Notes: generated by a model from the sequence alone, not told the origin. A DNA stretch of 64,000 nucleotides from Thermoplasmatota archaeon (GCA_029762535.1 JARVGK010000001.1:98860-162859), one strand, 5' to 3'; shown: positions 26,188 to 37,566, counted from the stretch's first letter. A program made the numbers and translations.

Positions 26188-29100
26188 TCATTCCTCGAAC
26201 TGGAGCTTCCTGGCCCTCCTTCCGCTGGAGATGGGCCCCTCGTCCTCGAAATCGATCGGATCATATTCGTAACCGCATTCATCGCACTCGTTGCCTTGTG
26301 ACGATCGGGTCCCGCACTCGGGACAGGCCCAACCCCTGTCGATCGACGAGGCACCACCTGTCGGCTCAGAGCCCTTCCTGGTGAGGACCAGGAATATGAC
26401 CAGCGCCACGGCGAGCATTATCACGAAAGCCAGAAGAAGCAGGAAAAGGGTGGCCTGGTCGATCCCGTTCTGTTCGCTTTCGTCATCGATGATGGTGAGG
26501 GTTATGGTTCTGGTCTCGGTGTCCGTTCCGTCGTACACGGTCAGGGTGACGGTGTATGTCCCAACCTCATAGTATGTGTGGTCAACCTTCGGACCGACCT
26601 TCTCCCTCTGTATACCGTTGCTGAGATCGAAATCCCAGCTGAACGTCAGCTCGTCGCCGTCATCGTCGTACGATCCGCCGGCATCGAATAGGATCGTCTG
26701 CCTCACCTTTATTGGAGATTGGGGGCTCGCGAGCAGGTTCACGATGGGTTTGCGGTTCGGTATGTCCAGGCTGTAGACTCCCGTACGCCTTATGAAGCTC
26801 CCGTCGCTGACCTCGAAATAATAGGAATGCTGTCCCGAGGGTAGTTGGACCTTCGAAGAGAGGTAGAAGGAGAATATCCTGTTATCCACCAGGAAACCCT
26901 CGTTAGTGATGGGATAAGTGGTTGTGTTGTCTATCACTATACGGAAATCCATCGGATCGTCCCCGTCGGCGTCCCTGTATTCCACCTTGAACGTGTGGCC
27001 TTTGCCCGCATCCGATGGCTCCACATAGTTCTGGTTCGGAACATGCCTCATCTCTGGCATATCGTTGTCAAGGATTCCTATGGCATAGCGCTTCGAGTGC
27101 AACCCGGATAGGTTGCCGTAGATGATCTTGTTGACGGTGTCGACTCCCGAGTGGGGGGCCGTGAGCCATGTTCGGGACCCCTCCTCGAAATGATACAGCC
27201 TGAGCCTGGATTCCACCATTCTGACAGGGAAGGCCTTCTCGGCGTATCCGATGGATATGTTCACCCATTCGAACCTGTACGCGGCGAAGGAGGGGAGCGG
27301 TCTGAACTCGATAATTGTCGAATACACGATCCTCGGGTCCGAAGCGGCGCCCTCGGGAGTTACTATGTTAACGATACCCCTCCCGTTGGGGTCGGATATA
27401 CCATATGAGAGGCGGACCTTGACGTCGTTGACGTAATCTATGAAGTCAGGATATGTGACGCGCTTCAATATCGTGAGGTTGATCCTATCCTCCGAATATG
27501 CCATCATGTCGTCGAACACTCTCAGGACAAGGGTAACGGTCCCGATCCCGCTTATCGTGGTCGCTGTCTTCTCGAGGCCGCCCTCGTACATAGAGCCGCT
27601 TCTTCCCTCTATTGACCATCGGTAGGTCAGGGGATCCCCCTCCGGATCGAAAGAGCCGGACGCGTCCAGCTCGATCTCCTCATCGGGGAAGATCATCATC
27701 CCCTCGGTCGGACCCATAATATTGGCGACGGGCGGCGTGTTGAGGGCTCCTACCGCTCTGATCAGGCCATCCCTTGTTGGTATCAAAATATGCCCTCCGG
27801 CAATGGCCAGCTCGCCCATCGGTTCCGATAGGAGGTCCAGCTCCCATGTGGTGGAATAGAGGTCCTGGTCGAGTGGTGAGAAGGATCGAATATGCCACGG
27901 TTCGGTTCCGGTCAGGACATGGAACGTGCGGTCGCCGGCCACTATCCTGCCGGAGGGTGTTTTGTCCAATGTGACGTTGTTGTACTCTGTCCCGTTTCTG
28001 GCGTTCATGAAATGGACCGTCCTTCCGTTGAAGAAAGCGATCCTCGTCCCGGGATAATCGAACGCGGGAGGGGCCGCGGGTCCTTGAGGAATATCGATGT
28101 GCCAGTACAGGTCCCTTCCGGGAACGGTGTCCGGGACCCCCTCATCGTCGTCCTTTTCATCGACGACTCCGTCGGCGTTGTCGTCCGGGTCATTGTCCAT
28201 AGCGATGATCCCTCCTTCATGGGCCACCAGCAGCACGTCCCCGGATATCGACAGGTGCAGGGGATCCCCGCTCAAGACACCCTCGAGGGACATGTTCATT
28301 TTACGTTCCCCGGTTCCTGAATCGATGACGACGACCTCGCCCCCTACCGCGATGTAGACGTTCCAAGTGTCCGCCGCGAAGGGTGCGTCGATCCCGGCTT
28401 CGTAGCTCCATGATAGTTCTCCGGTGTCGTCATCATAGGACCGGATGGTTCCGGCCGAATCGCGAAATACCACATTGGCCCCGGTGACGATCAGGGGAGA
28501 ATGGACAGCGTGGGAGAGAGGGGTCCTCCAGATGACATCTCCGGCAGTGAAGGAGGTATCCTCCTCCGATATGAAATCTCCGTCGTTGTCAGCGTCCTTG
28601 AATCCGATCCAGTCGAAGGCCCATATCGCAAGGTCGTCCCCCGCGCAGAACACCTTGTTCGGGAAGCCCATGGACTGGTCCCGGTCGATCAGGAGGGCAG
28701 GTCTTCCCATGAAATTGACCGAAGCGTTGCGATAACTCCAGGCCAGATCCGGCGAGGTGGAGTCCTCGAAATACTCCATCGAGATCAGGGCCCCTTCGGG
28801 ATCGACCATGAAGAGGGTCGAACCTATGGCCGAGGCGGATCCCGCCCCTCCATTGGTCATAAGCCACATGTCCTCAGCGGCCCCTGACCAGGGCCTTTCG
28901 AAAGCCCTCTCCCATAACGTTCTGTTGCTTGCCACGCTCTTGCGTGAAGCGCTGGTCAACCCGGGTCCGGACCCTGTCGATGTCCAGTAACCCTGCAGCT
29001 GCGATTCCACGCTCACAAGGAGGGAATCAAGGTTGTTTTTTTGGTCCCGGTCCCTCGGATGCGTATCGTATATCAATGCCGCTATGATGGGATACCCTTT

Positions 29101-30660
29101 GACCGCCCTCCACTGCACGGTGAAGGTGGTGGAGCCGAACGCATCGACCCTCACACCCTCTCTCCTCTCGAAGACATACCGTGTCTGGAAGTCCAGAGAT
29201 GAGGCCTCGAAGGAGACGTCGCATGATGCAGGCACGGTCCCGTTGTTCCTGATGGTGAGGGATACCTCGAGCATCTCGCCCTCCAGGACGAACGGGTCCG
29301 ATATCGACAGCCCGTCGATGGCTATCGGGTCCGGTGTGCCGATGGCGAAAAGCAGCCCTCCACCGAACGGGTCCGGTCTCGCGACGAAGATCCTCCCGTT
29401 GGCAACGGCCACCGTCGATGTTATGGGAGCTCCGTAGTTCCTTGTCCAGACCTTACGTTCATCATCGTCCATGGATCTTTCATCGGTCCTCAAGCAGTAG
29501 ACCCTGTGATCCCTTGAGCAAAATATCAGATAATCGCCGTTCACCACCGGGGAGGATTCAGTTATCGTGTTCGTGATATTGAACCTCCAGTTGATCCTCT
29601 GGGTGTCGATGTCTATCGAGAACACCGATCCTCCTATGCCTCCCAATCCGTACGGCCGCTTCGCGGTGACGTATATCGTTCCGTTATGATAGGCCGGCGT
29701 GGTCGATATGCTCGGGAACTCCCCTCCGCCTAACAGCATGTTCCAGAGGATCGTGCCGTCCCCCGCGTCCATACAGAACAACCTTCCTATGCTGTTGGCT
29801 ATGAACAGTCTCCCCTCCGCGAGCATGGGCGATCCTATGATCGATGCACCCAGATTGGTGGTCCAGATGATGTCGGCGTTGGGCTCGGAGGGATCAGACT
29901 CTCCCTGGTATCCGTCGTTACCATCGGAGAAACCGTCGGCATCGAGGCAGTATATGTTGCCCCATCCGTCCCCGACGAAGACCATCCCGTCGTGATAGGC
30001 GGCGGAGGACTGGAATCCCCAGGAGTTCTCCGTCCCGTTCAAGGAGAGATACCACACCATAGATCCGTTGACCCTGTCCAGGGCGTAGAAATTGGAATAT
30101 GTGAGGGAATGGGTCCCGATGAAGACCATTCCATGTGCAACGGTCGGCGTCGATTGTACGCTAGATGCGTTGAGGTCCGTCTGCCAATTCCTCATCCTTG
30201 AGCTGATGTCAAAGGAGTAGGCGAATCCGTTGTCCGCCCCGAAGAACAGGTCGCCTTCATGTGCCGCTACGGCCCTGGAGACGTGATGCCCTCCGTTGTA
30301 TACGCTCCATTCGACCTTTCCAGTATCGATATCGTATCCCCGGACGTATCCGTCCCCTGATCCCATGAACACCAAGTCGCCGTAGACCACCGGCGCGTCC
30401 GTTGCCTTCAAGGAAGGCACCTGCGCGGACCACAATGTCGAGTTGTCCAGCGGAATGGCCGATGGGCTGTAACCGGTGTGGTTGGTGTTGGCCATGTACA
30501 TCGGCCAGTCGAGCGGACCATCATCGTGTTCGGATCTCGAGAATGGGATCGGGTCTTTATCGGCCGGGACGCTCAATGCGTCATCATCGGTAACGAGAGG
30601 GATGCCGATCAGAATGAACGTCAGAACAATCGCACCGATCACGCTAAACCTGTTGGACAT
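26188..30660 (-). CDS. 1490-aa surface protein: two PQQ/BamB-like beta-propellers, CARDB, PKD domains, TM and cytosolic zinc ribbon
   Basis: DWPMY..N..HTG, repeated S(S/T)P.V..G..W blades, LDASGSFDPEGDPLTYRW and FDAGGSYDDDGDELTFSWDF (PKD); CPEC..CDEC after the TM. Confidence 0.88.
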   Translation of the reverse strand: MSNRFSVIGAIVLTFILIGIPLVTDDDALSVPADKDPIPFSRSEHDDGPLDWPMYMANTNHTGYSPSAIPLDNSTLWSAQVPSLKATDAPVVYGDLVFMGSGDGYVRGYDIDTGKVEWSVYNGGHHVSRAVAAHEGDLFFGADNGFAYSFDISSRMRNWQTDLNASSVQSTPTVAHGMVFIGTHSLTYSNFYALDRVNGSMVWYLSLNGTENSWGFQSSAAYHDGMVFVGDGWGNIYCLDADGFSDGNDGYQGESDPSEPNADIIWTTNLGASIIGSPMLAEGRLFIANSIGRLFCMDAGDGTILWNMLLGGGEFPSISTTPAYHNGTIYVTAKRPYGLGGIGGSVFSIDIDTQRINWRFNITNTITESSPVVNGDYLIFCSRDHRVYCLRTDERSMDDDERKVWTRNYGAPITSTVAVANGRIFVARPDPFGGGLLFAIGTPDPIAIDGLSISDPFVLEGEMLEVSLTIRNNGTVPASCDVSFEASSLDFQTRYVFERREGVRVDAFGSTTFTVQWRAVKGYPIIAALIYDTHPRDRDQKNNLDSLLVSVESQLQGYWTSTGSGPGLTSASRKSVASNRTLWERAFERPWSGAAEDMWLMTNGGAGSASAIGSTLFMVDPEGALISMEYFEDSTSPDLAWSYRNASVNFMGRPALLIDRDQSMGFPNKVFCAGDDLAIWAFDWIGFKDADNDGDFISEEDTSFTAGDVIWRTPLSHAVHSPLIVTGANVVFRDSAGTIRSYDDDTGELSWSYEAGIDAPFAADTWNVYIAVGGEVVVIDSGTGERKMNMSLEGVLSGDPLHLSISGDVLLVAHEGGIIAMDNDPDDNADGVVDEKDDDEGVPDTVPGRDLYWHIDIPQGPAAPPAFDYPGTRIAFFNGRTVHFMNARNGTEYNNVTLDKTPSGRIVAGDRTFHVLTGTEPWHIRSFSPLDQDLYSTTWELDLLSEPMGELAIAGGHILIPTRDGLIRAVGALNTPPVANIMGPTEGMMIFPDEEIELDASGSFDPEGDPLTYRWSIEGRSGSMYEGGLEKTATTISGIGTVTLVLRVFDDMMAYSEDRINLTILKRVTYPDFIDYVNDVKVRLSYGISDPNGRGIVNIVTPEGAASDPRIVYSTIIEFRPLPSFAAYRFEWVNISIGYAEKAFPVRMVESRLRLYHFEEGSRTWLTAPHSGVDTVNKIIYGNLSGLHSKRYAIGILDNDMPEMRHVPNQNYVEPSDAGKGHTFKVEYRDADGDDPMDFRIVIDNTTTYPITNEGFLVDNRIFSFYLSSKVQLPSGQHSYYFEVSDGSFIRRTGVYSLDIPNRKPIVNLLASPQSPIKVRQTILFDAGGSYDDDGDELTFSWDFDLSNGIQREKVGPKVDHTYYEVGTYTVTLTVYDGTDTETRTITLTIIDDESEQNGIDQATLFLLLLAFVIMLAVALVIFLVLTRKGSEPTGGASSIDRGWACPECGTRSSQGNECDECGYEYDPIDFEDEGPISSGRRARKLQFEE

Positions 30661-30760: not shown

Positions 30761-31990
30761 TCAGAGGTCGAAAACCACGTCCTCGTCCGGCAGATGGACC
30801 CGGGCGAACTGCTCGATGTCCTCTTTGATGGCCTCCCTGTTGTCGCCGTGTATGAGGATCACGTCCTCGGCGCCAGTGGCCCGGGCGAAATCGACTATGC
30901 CCGCGTGATCTGAATGTGCGGAGAAATCGAAGAAGGCCACTTCGCAATCGACCCTCTCGACGGCCCCCCCGATCTCTATGTGGCCAGTGTCCTTGAGCAT
31001 CCTTCCGTTGGTGTCCTCTACCTGGTATCCCGTCAGAAGGACGGCAGAGCGGGGATCGTTCTTGATCCTGTTCACATACTCGAGCACGGGTCCTCCGTCC
31101 AGCATCCCCGACGTGGTGACGACGAGGGGGGCCTCGCAGGCCTTGTTCCTCTGGTTCGGGGTCTTGACGAACCTCATGGAGTCCATGGCCCGCTTCAGCT
31201 TTCCGGGGTTCGAAATGAACTCCGGGTGCCTTAGGTAGATCTTCGCGACTCGTCTGCCCATCCCGTCGAGCCACTTCTCCTCGTCGATGGCGCTGAGGAC
31301 CTGGACGATCTCCTGGGTCCTGCCGACGGCAAAGGCGGGGATCACCACCCTGCCGCCCCGGTCCAGGACCTCCTCGATCTTGTCCAGGAACTCCCTCTCC
31401 ACCGTCTTTCTCGGAGGGTGCCGTCTACCCGCGTAGGTGGATTCGATGACCAGGACATCGCAATCGACGGGGGAGGCCCCCTTCAGGAGCCTCGTGTCCA
31501 GGGTGTTGATGTCCCCTGTGAAAAGGGTCTTCCTGCCGTTCTCTTCTATGGAGTACATGGTGGAACCGGGTATGTGCCCCGCATCGTGCGCTTTGATCTC
31601 AAATGGGCCGTCGGTCACGCTCTGGCCGTAGCGGATCGGTTCTGTCTCCTCGGTGTAGCGCCTGAGGTCGTTTATGCCCCAGGGTATGTGATGGTTCTCG
31701 AGCTTGGAGATCTTCAGACTGTCCTCCAGAAGGACGGTTGCGACCTCCAGGGTCACCTCGGTGCCCATGTTGGAGGTGCCGTACTCCCCTGTGAGCCAGG
31801 GGATCATCCCGACGTGGTCGAGGTGGGAGTGGGAGATGTATAGGCCGTCCACGAACTGGACCTTCCTCGGGTAGCCGGGAGGTTTCTTCGGGATCACGCC
31901 GTAATCGAACATCAGCCTGGTGGATCCCGATTCAAGGAGCATCCCGAGGCCTCCCACGAACCGGACACCGCCCACAAAGCTCATCTTCAT
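30761..31990 (-). CDS. Metallo-beta-lactamase/beta-CASP ribonuclease (COG1236, aCPSF-like without KH domains)
   Basis: HSHLDHVG, AGHIPGS, TGD, ESTY, PAFAVGRTQE, SGMLDGG, FSAH. Confidence 0.93.
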   Translation of the reverse strand: MKMSFVGGVRFVGGLGMLLESGSTRLMFDYGVIPKKPPGYPRKVQFVDGLYISHSHLDHVGMIPWLTGEYGTSNMGTEVTLEVATVLLEDSLKISKLENHHIPWGINDLRRYTEETEPIRYGQSVTDGPFEIKAHDAGHIPGSTMYSIEENGRKTLFTGDINTLDTRLLKGASPVDCDVLVIESTYAGRRHPPRKTVEREFLDKIEEVLDRGGRVVIPAFAVGRTQEIVQVLSAIDEEKWLDGMGRRVAKIYLRHPEFISNPGKLKRAMDSMRFVKTPNQRNKACEAPLVVTTSGMLDGGPVLEYVNRIKNDPRSAVLLTGYQVEDTNGRMLKDTGHIEIGGAVERVDCEVAFFDFSAHSDHAGIVDFARATGAEDVILIHGDNREAIKEDIEQFARVHLPDEDVVFDL

Positions 31991-32122
31991 CGGACATCAC
32001 CTGTGAGGGTGTAGAATGAACAACTACAATTTAGTTTTGCATCGAGAACGGCATCACGATCTACGGATAACATTTATAAGGAGGGTGCGGTTCTCGTTGC
32101 CCCGTACCGGCAGTTGATCGAC

Positions 32123-32314
32123 ATGATAATCCCCGTAAGATGTTTCACATGCGGCAAGGTGATAGGCCAGCTGTACGAGGAGTACAGCGCCAGGGTCCAG
32201 AACGGCGAGGATCCGGCCAAGGTCCTTGACGATCTGGGAGTTAGCAGATACTGCTGCAGGAGAATGTTCCTCTCCCATGTCGAGCTAATCGACGAAGTTA
32301 TGCCTTACACATGA
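32123..32314 (+). CDS. rpoN: DNA-directed RNA polymerase subunit Rpo10 (RpoN)
   Basis: [12 protein letters not shown]...LDDLG..RYCCRRM. Confidence 0.98.
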
Positions 32315-32336
32315 TGATCGTGAACGATGTGACCCT

Positions 32337-32364
32337 GGGGCCGTAGGGTAGCTTGGACCATCCT
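32337..32364 (+). pseudogene. 5' fragment of tRNA-Pro (acceptor 5' strand and D-arm), copy 1
   Basis: Identical to the first 28 nt of the tRNA at 32689. Confidence 0.9.
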
Positions 32365-32511
32365 CAGGCCGGATCCCCGATCCGGCCTCCGTACAGAATT
32401 TTTCTCCCCCCCCCGAGGAAGGGCTGAATTGTCTGATACAAGCCACACTTCGAACCGAGGGTTCGAAGGGTTTATAGGGTTCATGCGATTCACCCTATAA
32501 ACCATAACCCT

Positions 32512-32541
32512 GGGGCCGTAGGGTAGCTTGGACCATCCTAG
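32512..32541 (+). pseudogene. 5' fragment of tRNA-Pro, copy 2
   Basis: Identical to the first 30 nt of the tRNA at 32689. Confidence 0.9.
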
Positions 32542-32688
32542 TGACCTTTCTCCCCGAGAAAGGTCAAAGGCAGGGAACGGATCCCCCGATCCCCCCCTTT
32601 TCTCTTCGAGGAGTTAAGTCCACACTTCGAACCGAGGGTTCGAAGGGTTTATAGGGTTCATGCGATTCACCCTATAAACCATAACCCT

Positions 32689-32766
32689 GGGGCCGTAGGG
32701 TAGCTTGGACCATCCTAGCTGCTTGGGGTGCAGTTGACCTGAGTTCAAATCTCAGCGGCCCCACCA
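32689..32766 (+). tRNA. tRNA-Pro(UGG), CCA encoded
   Basis: Acceptor GGGGCCG/CGGCCCC-A-CCA; anticodon arm GCTGC-TTGGGGT-GCAGT; T-arm CTGAG-TTCAAAT-CTCAG; followed by a T-tract. Confidence 0.97.
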
Positions 32767-32853
32767 TTTTTTTAATAATAGGAGGGATCCCCGAGGAAGG
32801 TGATATCCTCCTCTTGATATGAGGTATGGAAGGTGCAAAAGCTTTTTAGAATA

Positions 32854-32927
32854 TTACAACGATATGTAACGTTAAATTGGAAATATTAGAATTAATTGTC
32901 ACCTATTTGTTACAAATAAAGATATAC
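32854..32927 (+). promoter_or_regulatory. AT-rich promoter with palindromic operator-like sites
   Basis: TTACA-N6-TGTAA (32854-32869); TATTTGT-T-ACAAATA (32904-32918) abutting GATATAC, 30 nt upstream of ATG 32951. Confidence 0.45.
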
Positions 32928-32950
32928 TGTCTCATACTATACCTGTTATC

Positions 32951-33067
32951 ATGGAAGCCTACGAAAAAATAAGCATATACCCGATGGATCAGTCCGTAAA
33001 GAACAGGAAGAGGCTCATCTCCCTGCTCGAGGATATGGGCATCAGGTACACTTACGAAGCATATTAA
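32951..33067 (+). CDS. Putative 38-aa microprotein MEAYEKISIYPMDQSVKNRKRLISLLEDMGIRYTYEAY
   Basis: Manual translation; host-like codons (AGG, ATA, CTC); promoter spacing fits a leaderless mRNA; GC hairpins downstream. Confidence 0.5.
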   Translation: MEAYEKISIYPMDQSVKNRKRLISLLEDMGIRYTYEAY

Positions 33068-33228
33068 AGCGGGATCCCCCCAACCCCCAACCCCCCGCTT
33101 CAAAGAGGGATCCCATCCGCCCGGGGGATCCGCCCCGGGCGGTTCAATTCATTTTTTTCCAATTATAGATTGAACGTCCCAATTTTTAAATAATACGGTC
33201 CGGGGTCGCTGTTTGGGTGTGATCCCGG

Positions 33229-36200
33229 ATGATGAAACATTTTACCCCCTTGACATCGATCGTTCTCATGCTCCTCCTCACTGCTGCCATCCCCTTCGGG
33301 ATCGGATCCCCTTCCGGGGATCCCCCATTATTGAACGATGCTCCTCCACCCTCGAGGGGGGACCTCATCCTCGTACCCAACGAGATCGTGAACCTCACCG
33401 GGGTCCACGAATACAGCAGGATCGTTCTGGGACAGAACTCGACCCTGATCCTCTGGAGCTGCGATCTATCGGTCACCGGCAGCTCGCTCGATCCCCCGTC
33501 GATCCTGGGCGAGCCGAAGAACGTTATACTCTACAATTCGGAACTGACGCTTACGGGCGAGGACGGGATCGGGTTGATAAGGGACCGGGGAGAGGACTGC
33601 CTCGTCGATCTGAGCCTGTATGGCGATATGTACATGGAGATGTCCAAAATAGAGCTGCGCCCCGGCAGCGGCTGGAGCTCCGGCGAGAGAGGGGCCTATC
33701 TCACCACCGACGTCTCCGGAGGCAGGTTCGCCGGAGGGAACTCCACCCTCGATCTGGAAATGGTCGGAGGCGGCAGCTTCACCATGTTCGGGTCCGAGAT
33801 CCTCCTCCTGGGCGGGGACGGAGCCGACGCTCCGGACGGGGAAGAGGTCGATGGCAACGTGGAGAGAGAACCCGGAGGATACACTAAGGGGGGGAACGTC
33901 TCCGGATGGGTGGGAGCTGGCGGCTCATGCCTCTTCAACCTCAGCGGGGACGTATCGACCGATATCATCGTCTCCTCGATAACCCTGCGTCCGGGGAACG
34001 GGGGCAAGGCCGGAGACGCGGGTTCCGTGAAATATGCGATGTTCTTCAGATCGATCAACCAGGAGACCCCGGCCGGGGGGTACACCTCCGCCTATTCCAC
34101 CGGAACGGGGATCCGTCCCGCAGGACGGGTGAGCGACAGGGTCGGCAGCGGGGGAGATTCCACTATGTTGATCAACACCTCCTCCGTTTTCATCACCACC
34201 TCTACCCTTGACGTTTCCGGAGGAATGGGAGGCGACGCGGGGAACGGGGCGGACTGCCGAGCCCCCTCGCTCACCACCCCGACGCAGTACACCTGTACTT
34301 CAAAAGGCGGTGGCGGGGCGGGTTACGCCGGCGGTTACGGATCGGACCCGCTGGGAAGGAAAGGAGGCGACATCTCCGGGTTAGTGGGGTCCGGAGGGAA
34401 CACCGTGGTGGAGCTTCACGCACAGCACCTGCTGACGATCGAGGACCTCACCGTCAAAGCCTCCGCCGGGAACGGAGGCAGGCCGGGCGATGGGGGCCTG
34501 GGAGGGGGCGCTTCCTATTCAGGTTACAACAATGACGGCGGCGGGGGCGGAGGGGGAGGATTCTCCGGCGGCGCGGGGGCCTATGCGTCGGGGGTCACAC
34601 CGGCCCCGAGCGGGGGAGAGTGCGGTACCGTGGGACCGCTGGTAGGCAAGGGCGGGGACAACAGCTTCAGGATGGGGGCTCCGTATTTCACGGGAAAAGG
34701 TCACTTCACCATGCAGAGGACCATGGGCAAGGCGAGCTCATACGTCCCGAGGCCCGCCGAAAGCGGGGAGATAGGCGCGAACGTTTTCCTGGTCGGAGGC
34801 GAAGGGGGTCAACAGGCCCTGGGAGCCGGAACGTCCGGGACCAACCTCCTCGAACACGGCCGCCCCTCTCCTATGCTCGAGGCCCCGGATGAGGGCTTCT
34901 GCTCCGGCAGCCAGTCCCTGGCCTTCAGCTGGGCGCAGCCCATATCCTTCTTCTGGTCATATTACACCACCTACTACGACTGGAGGCTCCTGCGCTCCGA
35001 CGACGTGAACGATGTGGTCCAGGAGGTCGAGACAACCCTCAGGACCCACACGCTCGAGCAGGACCCGGGGGACGGTAAGTTCTTCTGGACCGTGAGATGC
35101 AGGAACGAGATAGGCACCTCGCCGTGGAGCGTTCCCAGGCATTTCTTCCTGGACAGGACAGCCCCTGTGATGGAGGATCCCCACGAGGGGATCATCTGGA
35201 AGGGGCTCACCGATCCCGTCGTTTCCGTCATTGCCTTCGATCCGCTCTCGGGAGTGGACCCCGGATCATGCTTCTACAAGATCGACGAGGAGGGGGAGGC
35301 CCCAGGCGTGTGGAAGAGGCCCCTCGTCAACGAGACCGATGCCGGATCGGTGGAGATCCAGGTCACCCTGCCGTCAAGGGAGATCACCTGCGATATCTGG
35401 GTGAAGGCCTCCGATCTCTCGGGGAACGGGCCTTCTATCGGGGGCCCCTACCGCTACGGGATCGATCTCTGGGCCCCTTCGGTCCACGATCCCTCCCCGA
35501 GCGGTTACATTAACACGCATCCGGTCATCTCCTTCAGCGCGTCGGACAACCGCTCCGGCGTTGCCGAGAACATTATCATTGACATATTGGAGAGGAACGG
35601 GACCGGAAGATACGTCGAGAATATGGATGTCATCGAGACCTCCCCAGGGCGGTTCACGGCCGACAGGGCCATCGCCCTGCCTCGGGGAGACTACGAATAC
35701 CGGGTCGATGTTTTCGATCTGGCCGGGAACGGGTTCGTCCTCGGGCCCGTAGGGCTCTCCATCGACGACGTGCCCCCTCTCGTATCGTCCCTGAACGTTG
35801 AGAACGATGATTGGTTCAGAACAAGAAGGCCCGTCATCAACGGAACCATAACCGATCCTCACAGCGGGGCCGGCCCCTCTCGATTGGAACTACTGGACAG
35901 CGACGGGTCCGTCATCGGGTCCAGCGCTCTTGACCTGGACCTCAACGGTAGCTTCTCCTACTCCCCCGGAGAGGACCTGGCCGACGGCATGTTCTCGTTC
36001 AGGATCGTCGCCAAGGACGAGGCCGGCAACTCCTACACGACGCCCTCGGTCCGTTTCGGGGTGGACCTCTCAAGGCCCCTACTCGATATCGTATCTTCGT
36101 CTCCGGGCGGGGACGGGATACCATTGGTCATCTACGAGGCGGAGGATGCGACCTCGGGACTGGCATCGGTCAGGTTCCAGTGGATGGCCCCCGAAGGCGA

Positions 36201-37566
36201 CGGCTGGGCCGTCGTCGGCGAGGAGAACGCGGCCGTCCCCGATAACACGGAGCGAACGACGGCGCCCCTTCCGGTCCCGGAAGGCATCGCCCCGCTCTAC
36301 TGGCGCATGATAGCCTGTGACGAGGCGGGATGGGAGAGCTCCCCGTCCCTTGTGAGCAGGTACGATCCGCCGGGGGTCCGAGCGTTCATGACCATGGGAT
36401 CAACCTTGATAGGGGCGGGATCGGTCCTGAACCTCGTCCTCGAGGACGGGTTCGGGATCGACGCCCGAAGCGTGGAGTACAGGCTGGGCCAGGGGGCGTG
36501 GGTCGCCTCAGATGTCCAGGCTCTGGTAACGGGGATCTCCCCGATAGCGGGAGAGATCGTTACGAAGGCGTCCCTGTCGATACCTGTACCGAAGGGTATG
36601 GACGGGGAGACCGGGGTGCAGGTTGCTTGGAAGGACCCACTGCCACTGTCCTTGAGGAAGGTCATGCTGTCCTCCCTTCGGGTGGACGGGTCCGGGCCGG
36701 AGTTCACCGTGAGATGCCCCCGCCTGTGGGGAAGCGCTTCGGTCCCGGTCACCGTGTCCAACCTCAGGGACGCTTCCGCTGTTTCGCCCTCGGGTTTCGA
36801 GGTCTCGACCGGGGATGCGATCTGGGTCCGGGCGGGGATCGACGGCGGCCCCCGCTGGGAGAGCTGGGACGGGGACGGCGGGGTACTGCTGGTGAACGTG
36901 ACCTGGGGCGAGGATACGACCATTTCGGTGAGGGCCTTCGATGAATGGGGGAACACCGGGTCGGGGACCGCCGTCTCCAGGGCGACCAGGCCTCCCGAGG
37001 TCCGAATTGTAGGGATCCCCGCAAACGGCAGGGTCAGGGAGGGCGGGTCATTGATGCTTGGGGCAGCGGTCTCGGATCCCGACGGGGACGAGCTGGAGCT
37101 GAAATGGTTCGTGGACGGCGTGGAGATGTCCAACGGGACCACATGCAGGATCGAGCCCGGCCTCGGAACACACGAGGTCCGGCTGGTCGCGAGCGACGGA
37201 TACCACGAGATCGAATGCGAGGGCACCTTCGAGGTGGTCGAGGGATCCTCCGCGCCGCTGATGATCGGGATCGCAGCGATATCGCTTCTATTGCTCTTTT
37301 TGCTGATCGCCCTGATCGCATTCGCGGCGTTCATGATGATGAGGCGGGGGAAGGCCCCGGTCGAGAGCGAGGAGGATTGGGGAGAGGAGGAGGCGGAGGA
37401 GGAGGATGAGAAAGGGGCCAAGTGCTCGATATGCATGAGGAGGATCCCCGAGAAGGCGGCCCCGGTGAAATGCAGGTGCGGGTCGCGCTTCCACAAAGGA
37501 TGCGCCAGGAACGAGGGCGTATGCCCGGACTGCGGAAGGGAGATACTTATATCCATTAAGGATTAG
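33229..37566 (+). CDS. 1445-aa surface protein: glycine-rich repeat region, Ig-like repeats, TM and cytosolic C4HC3 zinc finger
   Basis: Signal peptide; GGxVSGxVGxGG repeats; D.SG/A.D.AGN Ig-like units; CSIC-x12-CRC-x4-HKGC-x6-CPDC at the C-terminus. Confidence 0.85.
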   Translation: MMKHFTPLTSIVLMLLLTAAIPFGIGSPSGDPPLLNDAPPPSRGDLILVPNEIVNLTGVHEYSRIVLGQNSTLILWSCDLSVTGSSLDPPSILGEPKNVILYNSELTLTGEDGIGLIRDRGEDCLVDLSLYGDMYMEMSKIELRPGSGWSSGERGAYLTTDVSGGRFAGGNSTLDLEMVGGGSFTMFGSEILLLGGDGADAPDGEEVDGNVEREPGGYTKGGNVSGWVGAGGSCLFNLSGDVSTDIIVSSITLRPGNGGKAGDAGSVKYAMFFRSINQETPAGGYTSAYSTGTGIRPAGRVSDRVGSGGDSTMLINTSSVFITTSTLDVSGGMGGDAGNGADCRAPSLTTPTQYTCTSKGGGGAGYAGGYGSDPLGRKGGDISGLVGSGGNTVVELHAQHLLTIEDLTVKASAGNGGRPGDGGLGGGASYSGYNNDGGGGGGGGFSGGAGAYASGVTPAPSGGECGTVGPLVGKGGDNSFRMGAPYFTGKGHFTMQRTMGKASSYVPRPAESGEIGANVFLVGGEGGQQALGAGTSGTNLLEHGRPSPMLEAPDEGFCSGSQSLAFSWAQPISFFWSYYTTYYDWRLLRSDDVNDVVQEVETTLRTHTLEQDPGDGKFFWTVRCRNEIGTSPWSVPRHFFLDRTAPVMEDPHEGIIWKGLTDPVVSVIAFDPLSGVDPGSCFYKIDEEGEAPGVWKRPLVNETDAGSVEIQVTLPSREITCDIWVKASDLSGNGPSIGGPYRYGIDLWAPSVHDPSPSGYINTHPVISFSASDNRSGVAENIIIDILERNGTGRYVENMDVIETSPGRFTADRAIALPRGDYEYRVDVFDLAGNGFVLGPVGLSIDDVPPLVSSLNVENDDWFRTRRPVINGTITDPHSGAGPSRLELLDSDGSVIGSSALDLDLNGSFSYSPGEDLADGMFSFRIVAKDEAGNSYTTPSVRFGVDLSRPLLDIVSSSPGGDGIPLVIYEAEDATSGLASVRFQWMAPEGDGWAVVGEENAAVPDNTERTTAPLPVPEGIAPLYWRMIACDEAGWESSPSLVSRYDPPGVRAFMTMGSTLIGAGSVLNLVLEDGFGIDARSVEYRLGQGAWVASDVQALVTGISPIAGEIVTKASLSIPVPKGMDGETGVQVAWKDPLPLSLRKVMLSSLRVDGSGPEFTVRCPRLWGSASVPVTVSNLRDASAVSPSGFEVSTGDAIWVRAGIDGGPRWESWDGDGGVLLVNVTWGEDTTISVRAFDEWGNTGSGTAVSRATRPPEVRIVGIPANGRVREGGSLMLGAAVSDPDGDELELKWFVDGVEMSNGTTCRIEPGLGTHEVRLVASDGYHEIECEGTFEVVEGSSAPLMIGIAAISLLLLFLLIALIAFAAFMMMRRGKAPVESEEDWGEEEAEEEDEKGAKCSICMRRIPEKAAPVKCRCGSRFHKGCARNEGVCPDCGREILISIKD

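Follow-up and report, generated by a model that had tools for sequence, protein, structure and literature searches.

A two-unit array of lineage-specific tRNA-linked repeats between rpoN and tRNA-Pro in a Thermoplasmatota archaeon

In many Thermoplasmatota, a gene for tRNA-Pro lies downstream of rpoN. In the 64,000 nt of DNA analysed here (the window), taken from a Thermoplasmatota archaeon (GCA_029762535.1, JARVGK010000001.1:98860-162859), the complete tRNA-Pro gene is preceded by two further copies of its own 5' end, each followed by DNA that folds into hairpins. This arrangement raises the question of what the intervening DNA is, where the tRNA gene originally began and how the copies arose. 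The region from rpoN to tRNA-Pro is a two-unit array of a non-coding, lineage-specific tRNA-linked repeat, named the H1 cassette, in which a unit comprises, in order, the first 28-30 nt of tRNA-Pro, a hairpin (H1), a T-run with a C-rich tract, and a palindromic segment (C) with a TATA box. The window belongs to a metagenome-assembled genome (MAG) of 2.96 Mb in 102 contigs that is 93% complete, and counts for the archaeon's own genome refer to this assembly.

The array behind rpoN

The array, all of it on the plus strand, is defined by its repeats. A 33-nt block, made of the 5-nt leader ACCCT and tRNA-Pro nt 1-28, occurs three times with 100% identity (32332-32364, 32507-32539 and 32684-32716; exact repeat family D2), and a 99-nt block, made of segment C and tRNA nt 1-30, occurs twice with 100% identity (32443-32541 and 32620-32718; exact repeat D1). 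The repeats are spaced at 175 and 177 nt, with 142-144 nt between them, and cannot be chance. The first copy (32332..32364) follows rpoN, the gene for RNA polymerase subunit N (Rpo10, 63 aa; 32123..32314, stop at 32312-32314), which was assigned by translation and by tblastn against Thermoplasmatota relatives at no more than 86% identity. The tRNA part of this copy, fragment 1 (32337-32364), starts 22 nt past the rpoN stop, the position where the intact tRNA-Pro of relatives begins.

This position is the ancestral start of the gene. Across 80 rpoN loci of other genomes, tRNA-Pro, where present, mostly starts 13-25 nt past the rpoN stop, and at none of the 80 is there a direct copy of the tRNA-Pro 5' end upstream of the gene. 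The same spacing of 13-25 nt holds at loci of Thermoplasmatota outside the family (L011, L012, L022 and L034) and in the family genome G016, in keeping with the proposal of a preliminary description of this DNA that 32337, just downstream of rpoN, was the native start of tRNA-Pro. Cassette DNA now parts this original 5' end from the rest of tRNA-Pro, and the intact gene stands behind the last copy of C. The units entered at nt 28-30, which places the insertion within the 5' part of the tRNA, as had been proposed.

The layout set out in the preliminary description was recovered element by element: the 33-nt block three times, the 99-nt block twice, bodies V1 and V2 of 78 nt each, and an intact tRNA-Pro. 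V1 (32365..32442; RNA fold z = -4.25) and V2 (32542..32619; z = -3.16), which it set apart as different, are not unrelated; the two differ in sequence but share a plan: a perfect 8-9-bp hairpin with the 7-nt loop TCCCCGA (H1), a T-run, and a C-rich tract of the form ...CCCGA. In V1, H1 spans 32366..32388, with the stem AGGCCGGA/TCCGGCCT and its loop at 32374-32380, as delimited by fold and covariation. A T-run (32399-32403), a candidate archaeal terminator, and a C-run ending in CCCGA (32406-32416), a tract conserved among 14 aligned units, follow at 32399..32416. In V2, which matches the covariance model R1 (H1 and its tail) with E = 7.7e-8, H1 at 32542-32566 (stem TGACCTTTC/GAAAGGTCA, loop 32551-32557) is followed by the C-rich tract (32580-32597) and then by the T-run (32598-32601). 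Judged by this shared plan, V1 and V2 are diverged copies of one module.

Segment C follows each body. Its first copy (32443..32511; fold z = -6.4), which also contains the inverted repeats I4 and I6, is built of a hairpin (32448-32468), the palindrome H2 (32469-32503, with TTTATA at 32471-32476), a 3-nt linker and the ACCCT leader, and is followed by fragment 2, an exact repeat of tRNA-Pro nt 1-30 (32512..32541). The second copy (32620..32688, with TTTATA at 32648-32653) leads into the intact tRNA-Pro(GGG) at 32689..32766, a gene with encoded CCA that was found by ARAGORN and is 100% identical in G005, G019, G022 and G023. TTTATA stands 41 nt ahead of fragment 2 and of the tRNA start (-41), and 11 of the 15 TTTA[TA]A boxes within 80 nt upstream of tRNA genes in this genome start at -45 to -36. 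The second copy of C, from its exact repetition and the place of its TATA box, is the predicted working promoter segment of the intact tRNA. C would then be the promoter of tRNA-Pro, and the T-run after H1 would stop transcription arriving from rpoN. The earlier suggestion that the elements supply a promoter is consistent with this usual placement of the box. Open reading frame (ORF) calls cross the units on the minus strand at 32285-32446 (53 aa) and 32305-32505 (66 aa), and the units hold no recognisable genes.

The H1 hairpin is conserved in shape. Twelve different H1 stems, collected by requiring at least 6 pairs, are paired in 96 of 96 cells, with double changes at all 8 pairs and an invariant loop, and the folds of H1, the C hairpins and the V segments reach z = -3.2 to -6.4. 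Over 25 units from 14 genomes in seven genera, the 27-30 nt before H1 are the 5' end of the tRNA that follows, mostly a perfect match, and the H1 loop lies 120-144 nt ahead of the next tRNA start. The fragments match the local tRNA at 27-30 of 30 positions although genomes differ in their tRNA 5' ends. The place of the junction is thus constant, at the border of the D arm and the anticodon arm (tRNA nt 27-30), and the fragment follows the local gene. That one body is joined to differing local fragments at a single structural position counts against both random duplication and an element that brings its own att site.

Two readings of the loop and the junction were rejected. The loop, parsed as T-CCC-CGA, would specify Pro and Arg codons; the Arg(CCG/GCG), Thr and Gln loci have the same loop, and the match is thus treated as coincidence, though most hosts are Pro or Arg. 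A classical crossover in the anticodon loop fails because the duplicated block ends before the anticodon stem, which leaves H1 out of register with any 7-nt overlap in the tRNA.

Copies in the genome and in the family

The cassette recurs in its own genome. The same layout is found ahead of tRNA-Arg(CCG), Arg(TCG), Arg(GCG) and Thr(TGT), and in reverse orientation (antisense) behind tRNA-Gln(CTG). H1 and the bases that follow it are identical over 31 nt at Pro unit 1, the Arg(CCG) unit and two Arg(TCG) units, and the fragment preceding each H1 is the local tRNA's own 5' end, whichever the tRNA. C-like palindromic promoter segments also stand ahead of other tRNA-Pro genes (contigs C44, C7 and C46) and of tRNA-Arg genes. 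The two 69-nt copies of C are thus identical, as first described, but C is not private to this locus. The mobile-cassette reading of the preliminary description would have lost its footing had relatives shown a fixed unit number with identical V segments and had C no other copy; other copies of the cassette exist.

Copying of tRNA ends extends well beyond H1. Exact words of at least 12 nt were counted within 1.5 kb of each of the 44 tRNA genes. The tRNA's own 5' end is copied upstream at 10 of the 44 (17 copies), its own 3' end downstream at 22 of the 44 (41 copies), and one or both ends on the matching side at 26 of the 44; in the controls, non-cognate pairs gave 0.45% and 1.0%, and the wrong side 0 and 2. 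The downstream, or 3'-type, units are built from other common hairpin modules (GGAAAAT...ATTTTCC and CCTTTGGA...TCCAAAGG), open in most cases with the local T arm and acceptor strand in inverted form, and end in a direct copy that begins at T-loop position 56 or 60/61. The locus, which had been treated as singular, is instead one case of a repeat class that runs through the genome and the family and includes arrays of tRNA 3' ends. Runs of N or contig ends lie inside tRNA-linked arrays on contigs C5, C7, C23, C33, C47 and C69, so that the MAG gives minimum unit counts and may conceal some tRNA genes. One tRNA-Pro apparently lies within an N run at ~C7:39000.

An interrupted tRNA gene is found upstream of tRNA-Thr(GGT) on contig C36 (49465-49720, minus strand). 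It is a complete second copy of tRNA-Thr(GGT) broken by two inserts, one of 51 nt with two hairpins near nt 30 and one of 77 nt in the T loop; each is made of the common hairpin modules and is present without target duplication. A check by hand found no bulge-helix-bulge motif at the first insert, no systematic search for such motifs having been run.

Among relatives, the cassette follows the family. The R1 model matches 20 of the 23 other family genomes, in all seven genera, but has no match in 13 genomes drawn from eight further families of the class. A stricter motif (TCCCCGA, 20-30 nt, CCCCNCCCCGA) had given no match outside the archaeon's own genome, a null explained by drift of its second part, as the covariance model later matched the cassette family-wide. 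The same layout occurs at the locus in independently assembled MAGs of six other genera. The comparison of relatives that had been proposed beforehand finds 0, 1 or 2 units with different V bodies between rpoN and tRNA-Pro: none in G016, where the gene is bare, one in G023, G014 and G006, and two in G011, G007 and G000, with two body types combined differently among relatives. The array of metagenome contig L123 resembles that of G011. Units therefore come and go among relatives. The host tRNA species of H1 (Pro, Arg, Thr and Gln) are the same in all genera.

Not every part of the cassette is kept to the same degree. G019 has no fragment, its H1 directly adjoining the rpoN stop; in genera g3 and g5 only the C-like promoter remains at tRNA-Pro; and a homologous palindromic promoter lies ahead of tRNA-Pro in the fragment-less genomes G008, G020, G013, G004, G010 and G015. 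The D loop of the fragment is deleted in G002, G016 and G020. That H1 and the promoter are kept while the fragment is lost (G019 and the g5 genomes) or gutted suggests that the fragment is a by-product, and that H1 and the promoter are the retained parts of the cassette.

The 3' type reaches further than the 5' type. At sampled tRNA loci, 3'-type arrays occur at 8 of 30 in G004, of the same family, at 7 of 29 in G024, of another family of the same order, and at 2 of 31 sampled tRNAs in eleven other families of the phylum, and 5'-type units are absent from the sampled loci outside the family.

Two further features of tRNA-Pro were observed in relatives. In g6, a single genus (L102-L121: G000, G005, G011, G016, G019, G022 and G023), tRNA-Pro(GGG) exists at the same locus in two forms that have nt 1-28 and the acceptor 3' strand in common, are 82% identical overall and show compensating changes in their anticodon and T stems; the point at which they switch is the cassette junction. 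At L110, L105 and L115 (G003, G014 and G016), the tRNA-Pro 3' end and the start of its trailer are repeated in inverted orientation 20-30 nt downstream, giving a long hairpin whose sequence varies while its shape is kept.

Relation to known systems

The H1 cassette is of the same broad kind as the tRNA 3'-end repeats of its own genome and the RtT repeats at tyrT of Escherichia coli, but with the 5' end copied. The tRNA-linked, or RtT, repeats of tyrT-tyrV (rttR, Rfam RF00391) were reportedly described by Egan and Landy in 1978 and by Rudd in 1999. To our knowledge, their origin and function have gone unexplained since 1978. The E. coli locus, on inspection, has one 175-bp unit after tyrT and three 178-bp units after tyrV. 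Every unit contains hairpins and an inverted GGGGAAGG, and its last 19 nt repeat the 3' end of tRNA-Tyr from within the T loop onward. Both systems consist of few, gene-less tandem units of similar length (175/178 bp there, 175/177 bp here) that carry an exact copy of the adjacent tRNA end. The E. coli grammar matches the downstream arrays of this archaeon and mirrors its upstream H1 units: in E. coli the 3' end is copied downstream, whereas here the 5' end is copied upstream together with a predicted promoter, and a whole archaeal family has such repeats at most of its tRNA genes. cmscan gave no RF00391 match over 31500-33500 (E <= 1) or at six other array loci (E <= 0.01), returning only tRNA and tRNA-clan matches and a few unrelated ones at chance level, and known RNA families, ribozymes included, gave no relevant match. 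As the RF00391 model does not match, the units are not members of that family. The H1 cassette adds a mirror-image, family-wide form to the tRNA-linked repeats that have been known since 1978.

Parallel cases are many in this archaeal family, with over half of the tRNA genes affected, two mirror-image types in which the 5' or the 3' end is copied, hairpin modules common to different loci and unit numbers that vary between close relatives. These properties together make the origin of such repeats approachable by comparative and read-level analysis. The 5' type would also rewire expression, cutting tRNA genes off from upstream operons and giving them a promoter of their own. For annotation, the risk is that fragments and tRNA-shaped units are taken for tRNA genes or pseudogenes; the arrays also interrupt short-read assemblies.

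Genomic islands, proviruses and tycheposons that tyrosine integrases insert at tRNA genes (Islander, PMC4383910; tycheposons, bioRxiv 10.1101/2020.12.28.424599; PMC9897764) resemble the array in that a displaced fragment forms a direct repeat with the restored gene, in their tandem stacking at one tRNA, and in that stacks may include units devoid of an integrase. Such elements are kb-sized, encode or depend on an integrase with a fixed att and usually involve the 3' part of the tRNA. The units described here, in contrast, are ~145 bp long and gene-less, copy the 5' part, combine one body with different local fragments and have no matching integrase that could be found. Of the marks of an integrase element, the flanking tRNA direct repeat and the restored tRNA are present; the integrase gene and fixed att are not. 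Integrations of kb-sized elements routinely leave tRNA fragments (PMC9897764). At tRNA-Thr(GGU) of Caldiarchaeum subterraneum, a 1.8-kb recombinase-bearing element leaves a tRNA 5' fragment (PMC3293823). That case is likewise archaeal, with a 5' fragment upstream of the complete gene and population heterogeneity at the locus, but the element encodes a recombinase and is linked to intron gain, and nothing comparable lies inside H1 units.

Other classes of short repeats share fewer traits. Repetitive extragenic palindromes and their mosaics (REP/BIME), REPINs and miniature inverted-repeat transposable elements (MITEs) are likewise short, non-coding, strongly folding and modular, with covarying stems. 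REPINs depend on the RAYT (Y1) transposase and are not tied to tRNA ends, and this MAG holds no Y1. The hairpins of H1 units are internal, not terminal, the duplicated piece is 11-44 nt, and the 93%-complete MAG has one IS110; terminal inverted repeats or target duplications of fixed length were not seen on reading the units, a search dedicated to them not having been run. A CRISPR array was rejected, since H1, the T/C tract and C recur in the 142-144 nt between repeats, the repeat itself is part of a tRNA, and a true array exists on contig C5. An integron cassette array was likewise rejected, the units being without recognisable genes and no integrase being nearby. As for a split or intron-bearing tRNA, the locus includes an intact tRNA-Pro(GGG), and H1 pairs with itself and is common to different tRNAs, which argues against a specific partner.

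Origin of the cassettes and neighbouring observations

The explanation favoured here, to which we give an even chance, is that non-coding insertion cassettes separated the tRNA gene from its original 5' end and provide it with a promoter, as well as a terminator-like tract. The T-run of each cassette would end rpoN transcription and C would give the tRNA a promoter of its own, leaving the upstream fragments as by-products instead of genes. Unit number would shift by recombination between the 28-33-nt direct repeats, giving gain, loss and precise loop-out, as in the loss in G016. Perfect stems would be maintained by selection or by template-switch correction of palindromes, and fragments would be kept identical to the local tRNA by gene conversion or by being made anew often. 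To enter a tRNA gene for the first time, a cassette would require a step that recognises a structure or a site, carried out by an enzyme that lies outside this MAG or is not yet recognisable. Of the mobile cassette first proposed, then, insertion, variable unit number and a multi-copy family are supported, while an integrase-bearing element as the mechanism finds no support.

Several points weigh against insertion cassettes, the first of them being the want of an enzyme. An autonomous, integrase-bearing element with C next to the tRNA 5' half had been put forward as something to look for; none carrying C or H1 was found, nor was a circular form seen, and the pattern of a tRNA-Pro fragment with the H1 loop had 0 matches in viral contigs and 1 match, of array type, in metagenome contigs. 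In the MAG, recombinases number three (two of the tyrosine and one of the serine type) and IS110 transposases one, and no array is linked to any of them. PF00589 occurs in the whole MAG only at C25:101143 and C53:7817, neither near an H1 array. The Y1 transposase, TnpB and DDE_Tnp_1 (PF01797, PF07282 and PF01609) are absent from this 93%-complete MAG, as is reverse transcriptase. Cas1 occurs only in an ordinary Cas1-Cas2-CRISPR locus (contig C5, ~61-69 kb), and the one IS110 copy belongs to a type sporadic across the class whose presence does not track H1; both were rejected as the enzyme. The only GIY-YIG domain of the MAG sits in a 612-aa open frame that is presumably UvrC. In that case, the lead of an Ssn-type hairpin nuclease (PMC11893778) is inapplicable here. 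Further points concern the units themselves. Between loci, the duplicated part of the tRNA ranges over 11-44 nt and the common leader over 4-24 nt or more, a spread that does not fit a single ruler-type integrase. Identical host tRNA species in all genera could reflect old vertical inheritance and selection instead of ongoing mobility. The promoter and terminator roles are predictions from sequence. Finally, the invariant loop and near-perfect fragments could equally belong to expressed functional RNAs.

An RNA intermediate was also rejected: the copies of the tRNA-Arg(CCG) 3' end run into the trailer and not into an untemplated CCA, and no reverse transcriptase is present. The serine recombinase was set aside because it belongs to an AT-rich element beside tRNA-Cys. 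It is encoded on contig C58 (77885-78732, L144; 287 aa), ~340 nt downstream of an AT-flanked tRNA-Cys, and the region is probably a separate mobile element with its own tRNA. Two more tRNA-Cys genes lie on the small contigs C82 and C100.

The rival that fares best makes the units small-RNA genes. C would drive an RNA of ~65-90 nt (the tRNA 5' part, H1 with the loop UCCCCGA and a U-run end) that acts, for example, as a decoy or regulator for a factor binding tRNA 5' halves, or as a protein-binding hairpin, and the arrays would be selected gene copies. Such genes would explain a TATA box at the proper distance in each unit and a T-run after H1, a loop invariant in seven genera on stems that covary, fragments identical to the local tRNA at 27-30 of 30 positions despite differing tRNAs between genomes, and the constancy of Pro, Arg, Thr and Gln as hosts in all genera; the E. 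coli RtT repeats, too, are transcribed, as rtT RNA (bioRxiv 10.1101/2024.07.17.603846). We nevertheless regard small-RNA genes as rather unlikely. Unit 1 is directly preceded by rpoN, with no C ahead of it, and the fragment looks dispensable, being lost in G019 and the g5 genomes and lacking its D loop in G002, G016 and G020. Moreover, fragment and H1 as a whole fold no better than shuffled sequence (z = -0.5 and -1.5), and no Rfam family matches.

It is also conceivable, if quite unlikely, that nothing mobile was involved and that an old promoter-leader was duplicated locally by slippage or unequal crossing-over and homogenised by gene conversion, bodies that are alike at different tRNAs stemming from the descent of paralogous tRNA loci and from ectopic conversion. 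C-like promoters do stand ahead of tRNA-Pro in fragment-less family genomes, the Pro and Arg tRNAs of the family have very similar 5' halves that would permit ectopic exchange, exact 99-nt repeats are typical of recent tandem duplication, and no transposase or integrase linked to the arrays was found. A plain duplication, however, would have copied V, and V1 and V2 differ. Nor would random breakpoints yield a junction at nt 27-30 in every tRNA and genome. Fragment 1 stands at the ancestral position with cassette DNA after it, so at least one insertion happened, and Pro unit 1 joins a pure Pro fragment to an H1 identical to that of Arg, with no homology at the junction.

That the units are decayed attL/attR arms of integrase-encoding plasmids or viruses which replaced the tRNA 5' end, as proposed for the Caldiarchaeum tRNA-Thr element, appears improbable. 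Direct repeats of part of the tRNA do flank each unit with the tRNA restored, a conventional integrase element is present at this archaeon's own tRNA-Trp (C53 and C102), H1-bearing 263-bp repeats bracket a 1.6-kb two-gene insert in G002, and a 5' fragment left by a recombinase-bearing element is documented (PMC3293823). Random decay of kb-sized elements would not give the near-constant small size seen in seven genera (120-144 nt from the H1 loop to the tRNA), and no unit has an ORF remnant, viral contigs gave 0 matches, and the body is common to different tRNAs while the repeat is always local. An assembly artefact, by which repeats were created or miscounted by the assembler, is most improbable: several MAG arrays do contain N runs or sit at contig ends, and 99-nt repeats can confuse short-read assembly, but the unique sequences of V1 and V2 anchor each unit, and independent MAGs of six other genera and one metagenome contig show the same layout.

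A broader proposal is tentative, and possible rather than probable. Most tRNA genes of the family, and for the 3' type of the order, would be wrapped in tRNA-templated modular repeats that are made and kept by machinery not yet recognised. A structure-specific nuclease or recombinase might do this, acting at single-stranded joints of the cloverleaf (nt 26/27 and the T loop) and recognising hairpins such as H1 through their invariant loop. The units might instead be functional RNAs of one class, composed of a tRNA end and a hairpin. If either view is true, the RtT repeats of E. coli are an isolated bacterial example of a much wider phenomenon.

Larger elements were observed near tRNA genes and H1 units. 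At tRNA-Trp, a conventional element is represented by a partial tyrosine integrase at a contig end (C53:7817-8068) and a 20-nt copy of the tRNA-Trp 3' end (C102:492). In G002 (C131:14000-17300, L135), two 263-bp direct repeats, 95% identical, bracket a 1.6-kb AT-rich insert. Within each repeat is an H1 unit that ends in an acceptor-like closing stem and ACCA; two ORFs lie in the insert, with one weak match to a TrmB-type helix-turn-helix domain, and an ORF past the second repeat weakly matches an AbiEi type. H1 units may thus bound larger inserts too.

Hairpin-dense intergenic stretches occur on contigs C31 (5400-5900 and 7500-7860) and C25 (31225-31460), rich in GGGATC and with H1-like and GGAAAAT-type hairpins. 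They lie away from any tRNA found by ARAGORN, and the C25 stretch adjoins an island of low GC (29-34%). In the window, a downstream copy of the tRNA 3' end was not found at the tRNA-Pro locus. The trailer of the gene (32767..32812, plus strand), to which repeats D3 and D5 belong, consists of a run of seven Ts and then a hairpin, AGGAGG...CCTCCT, with GGATCCCCGA in its loop. Two long ORFs of 1490 and 1445 aa bracket the rpoN-tRNA-Pro region, at 26188-30660 on the minus strand and 33229-37566 on the plus strand.

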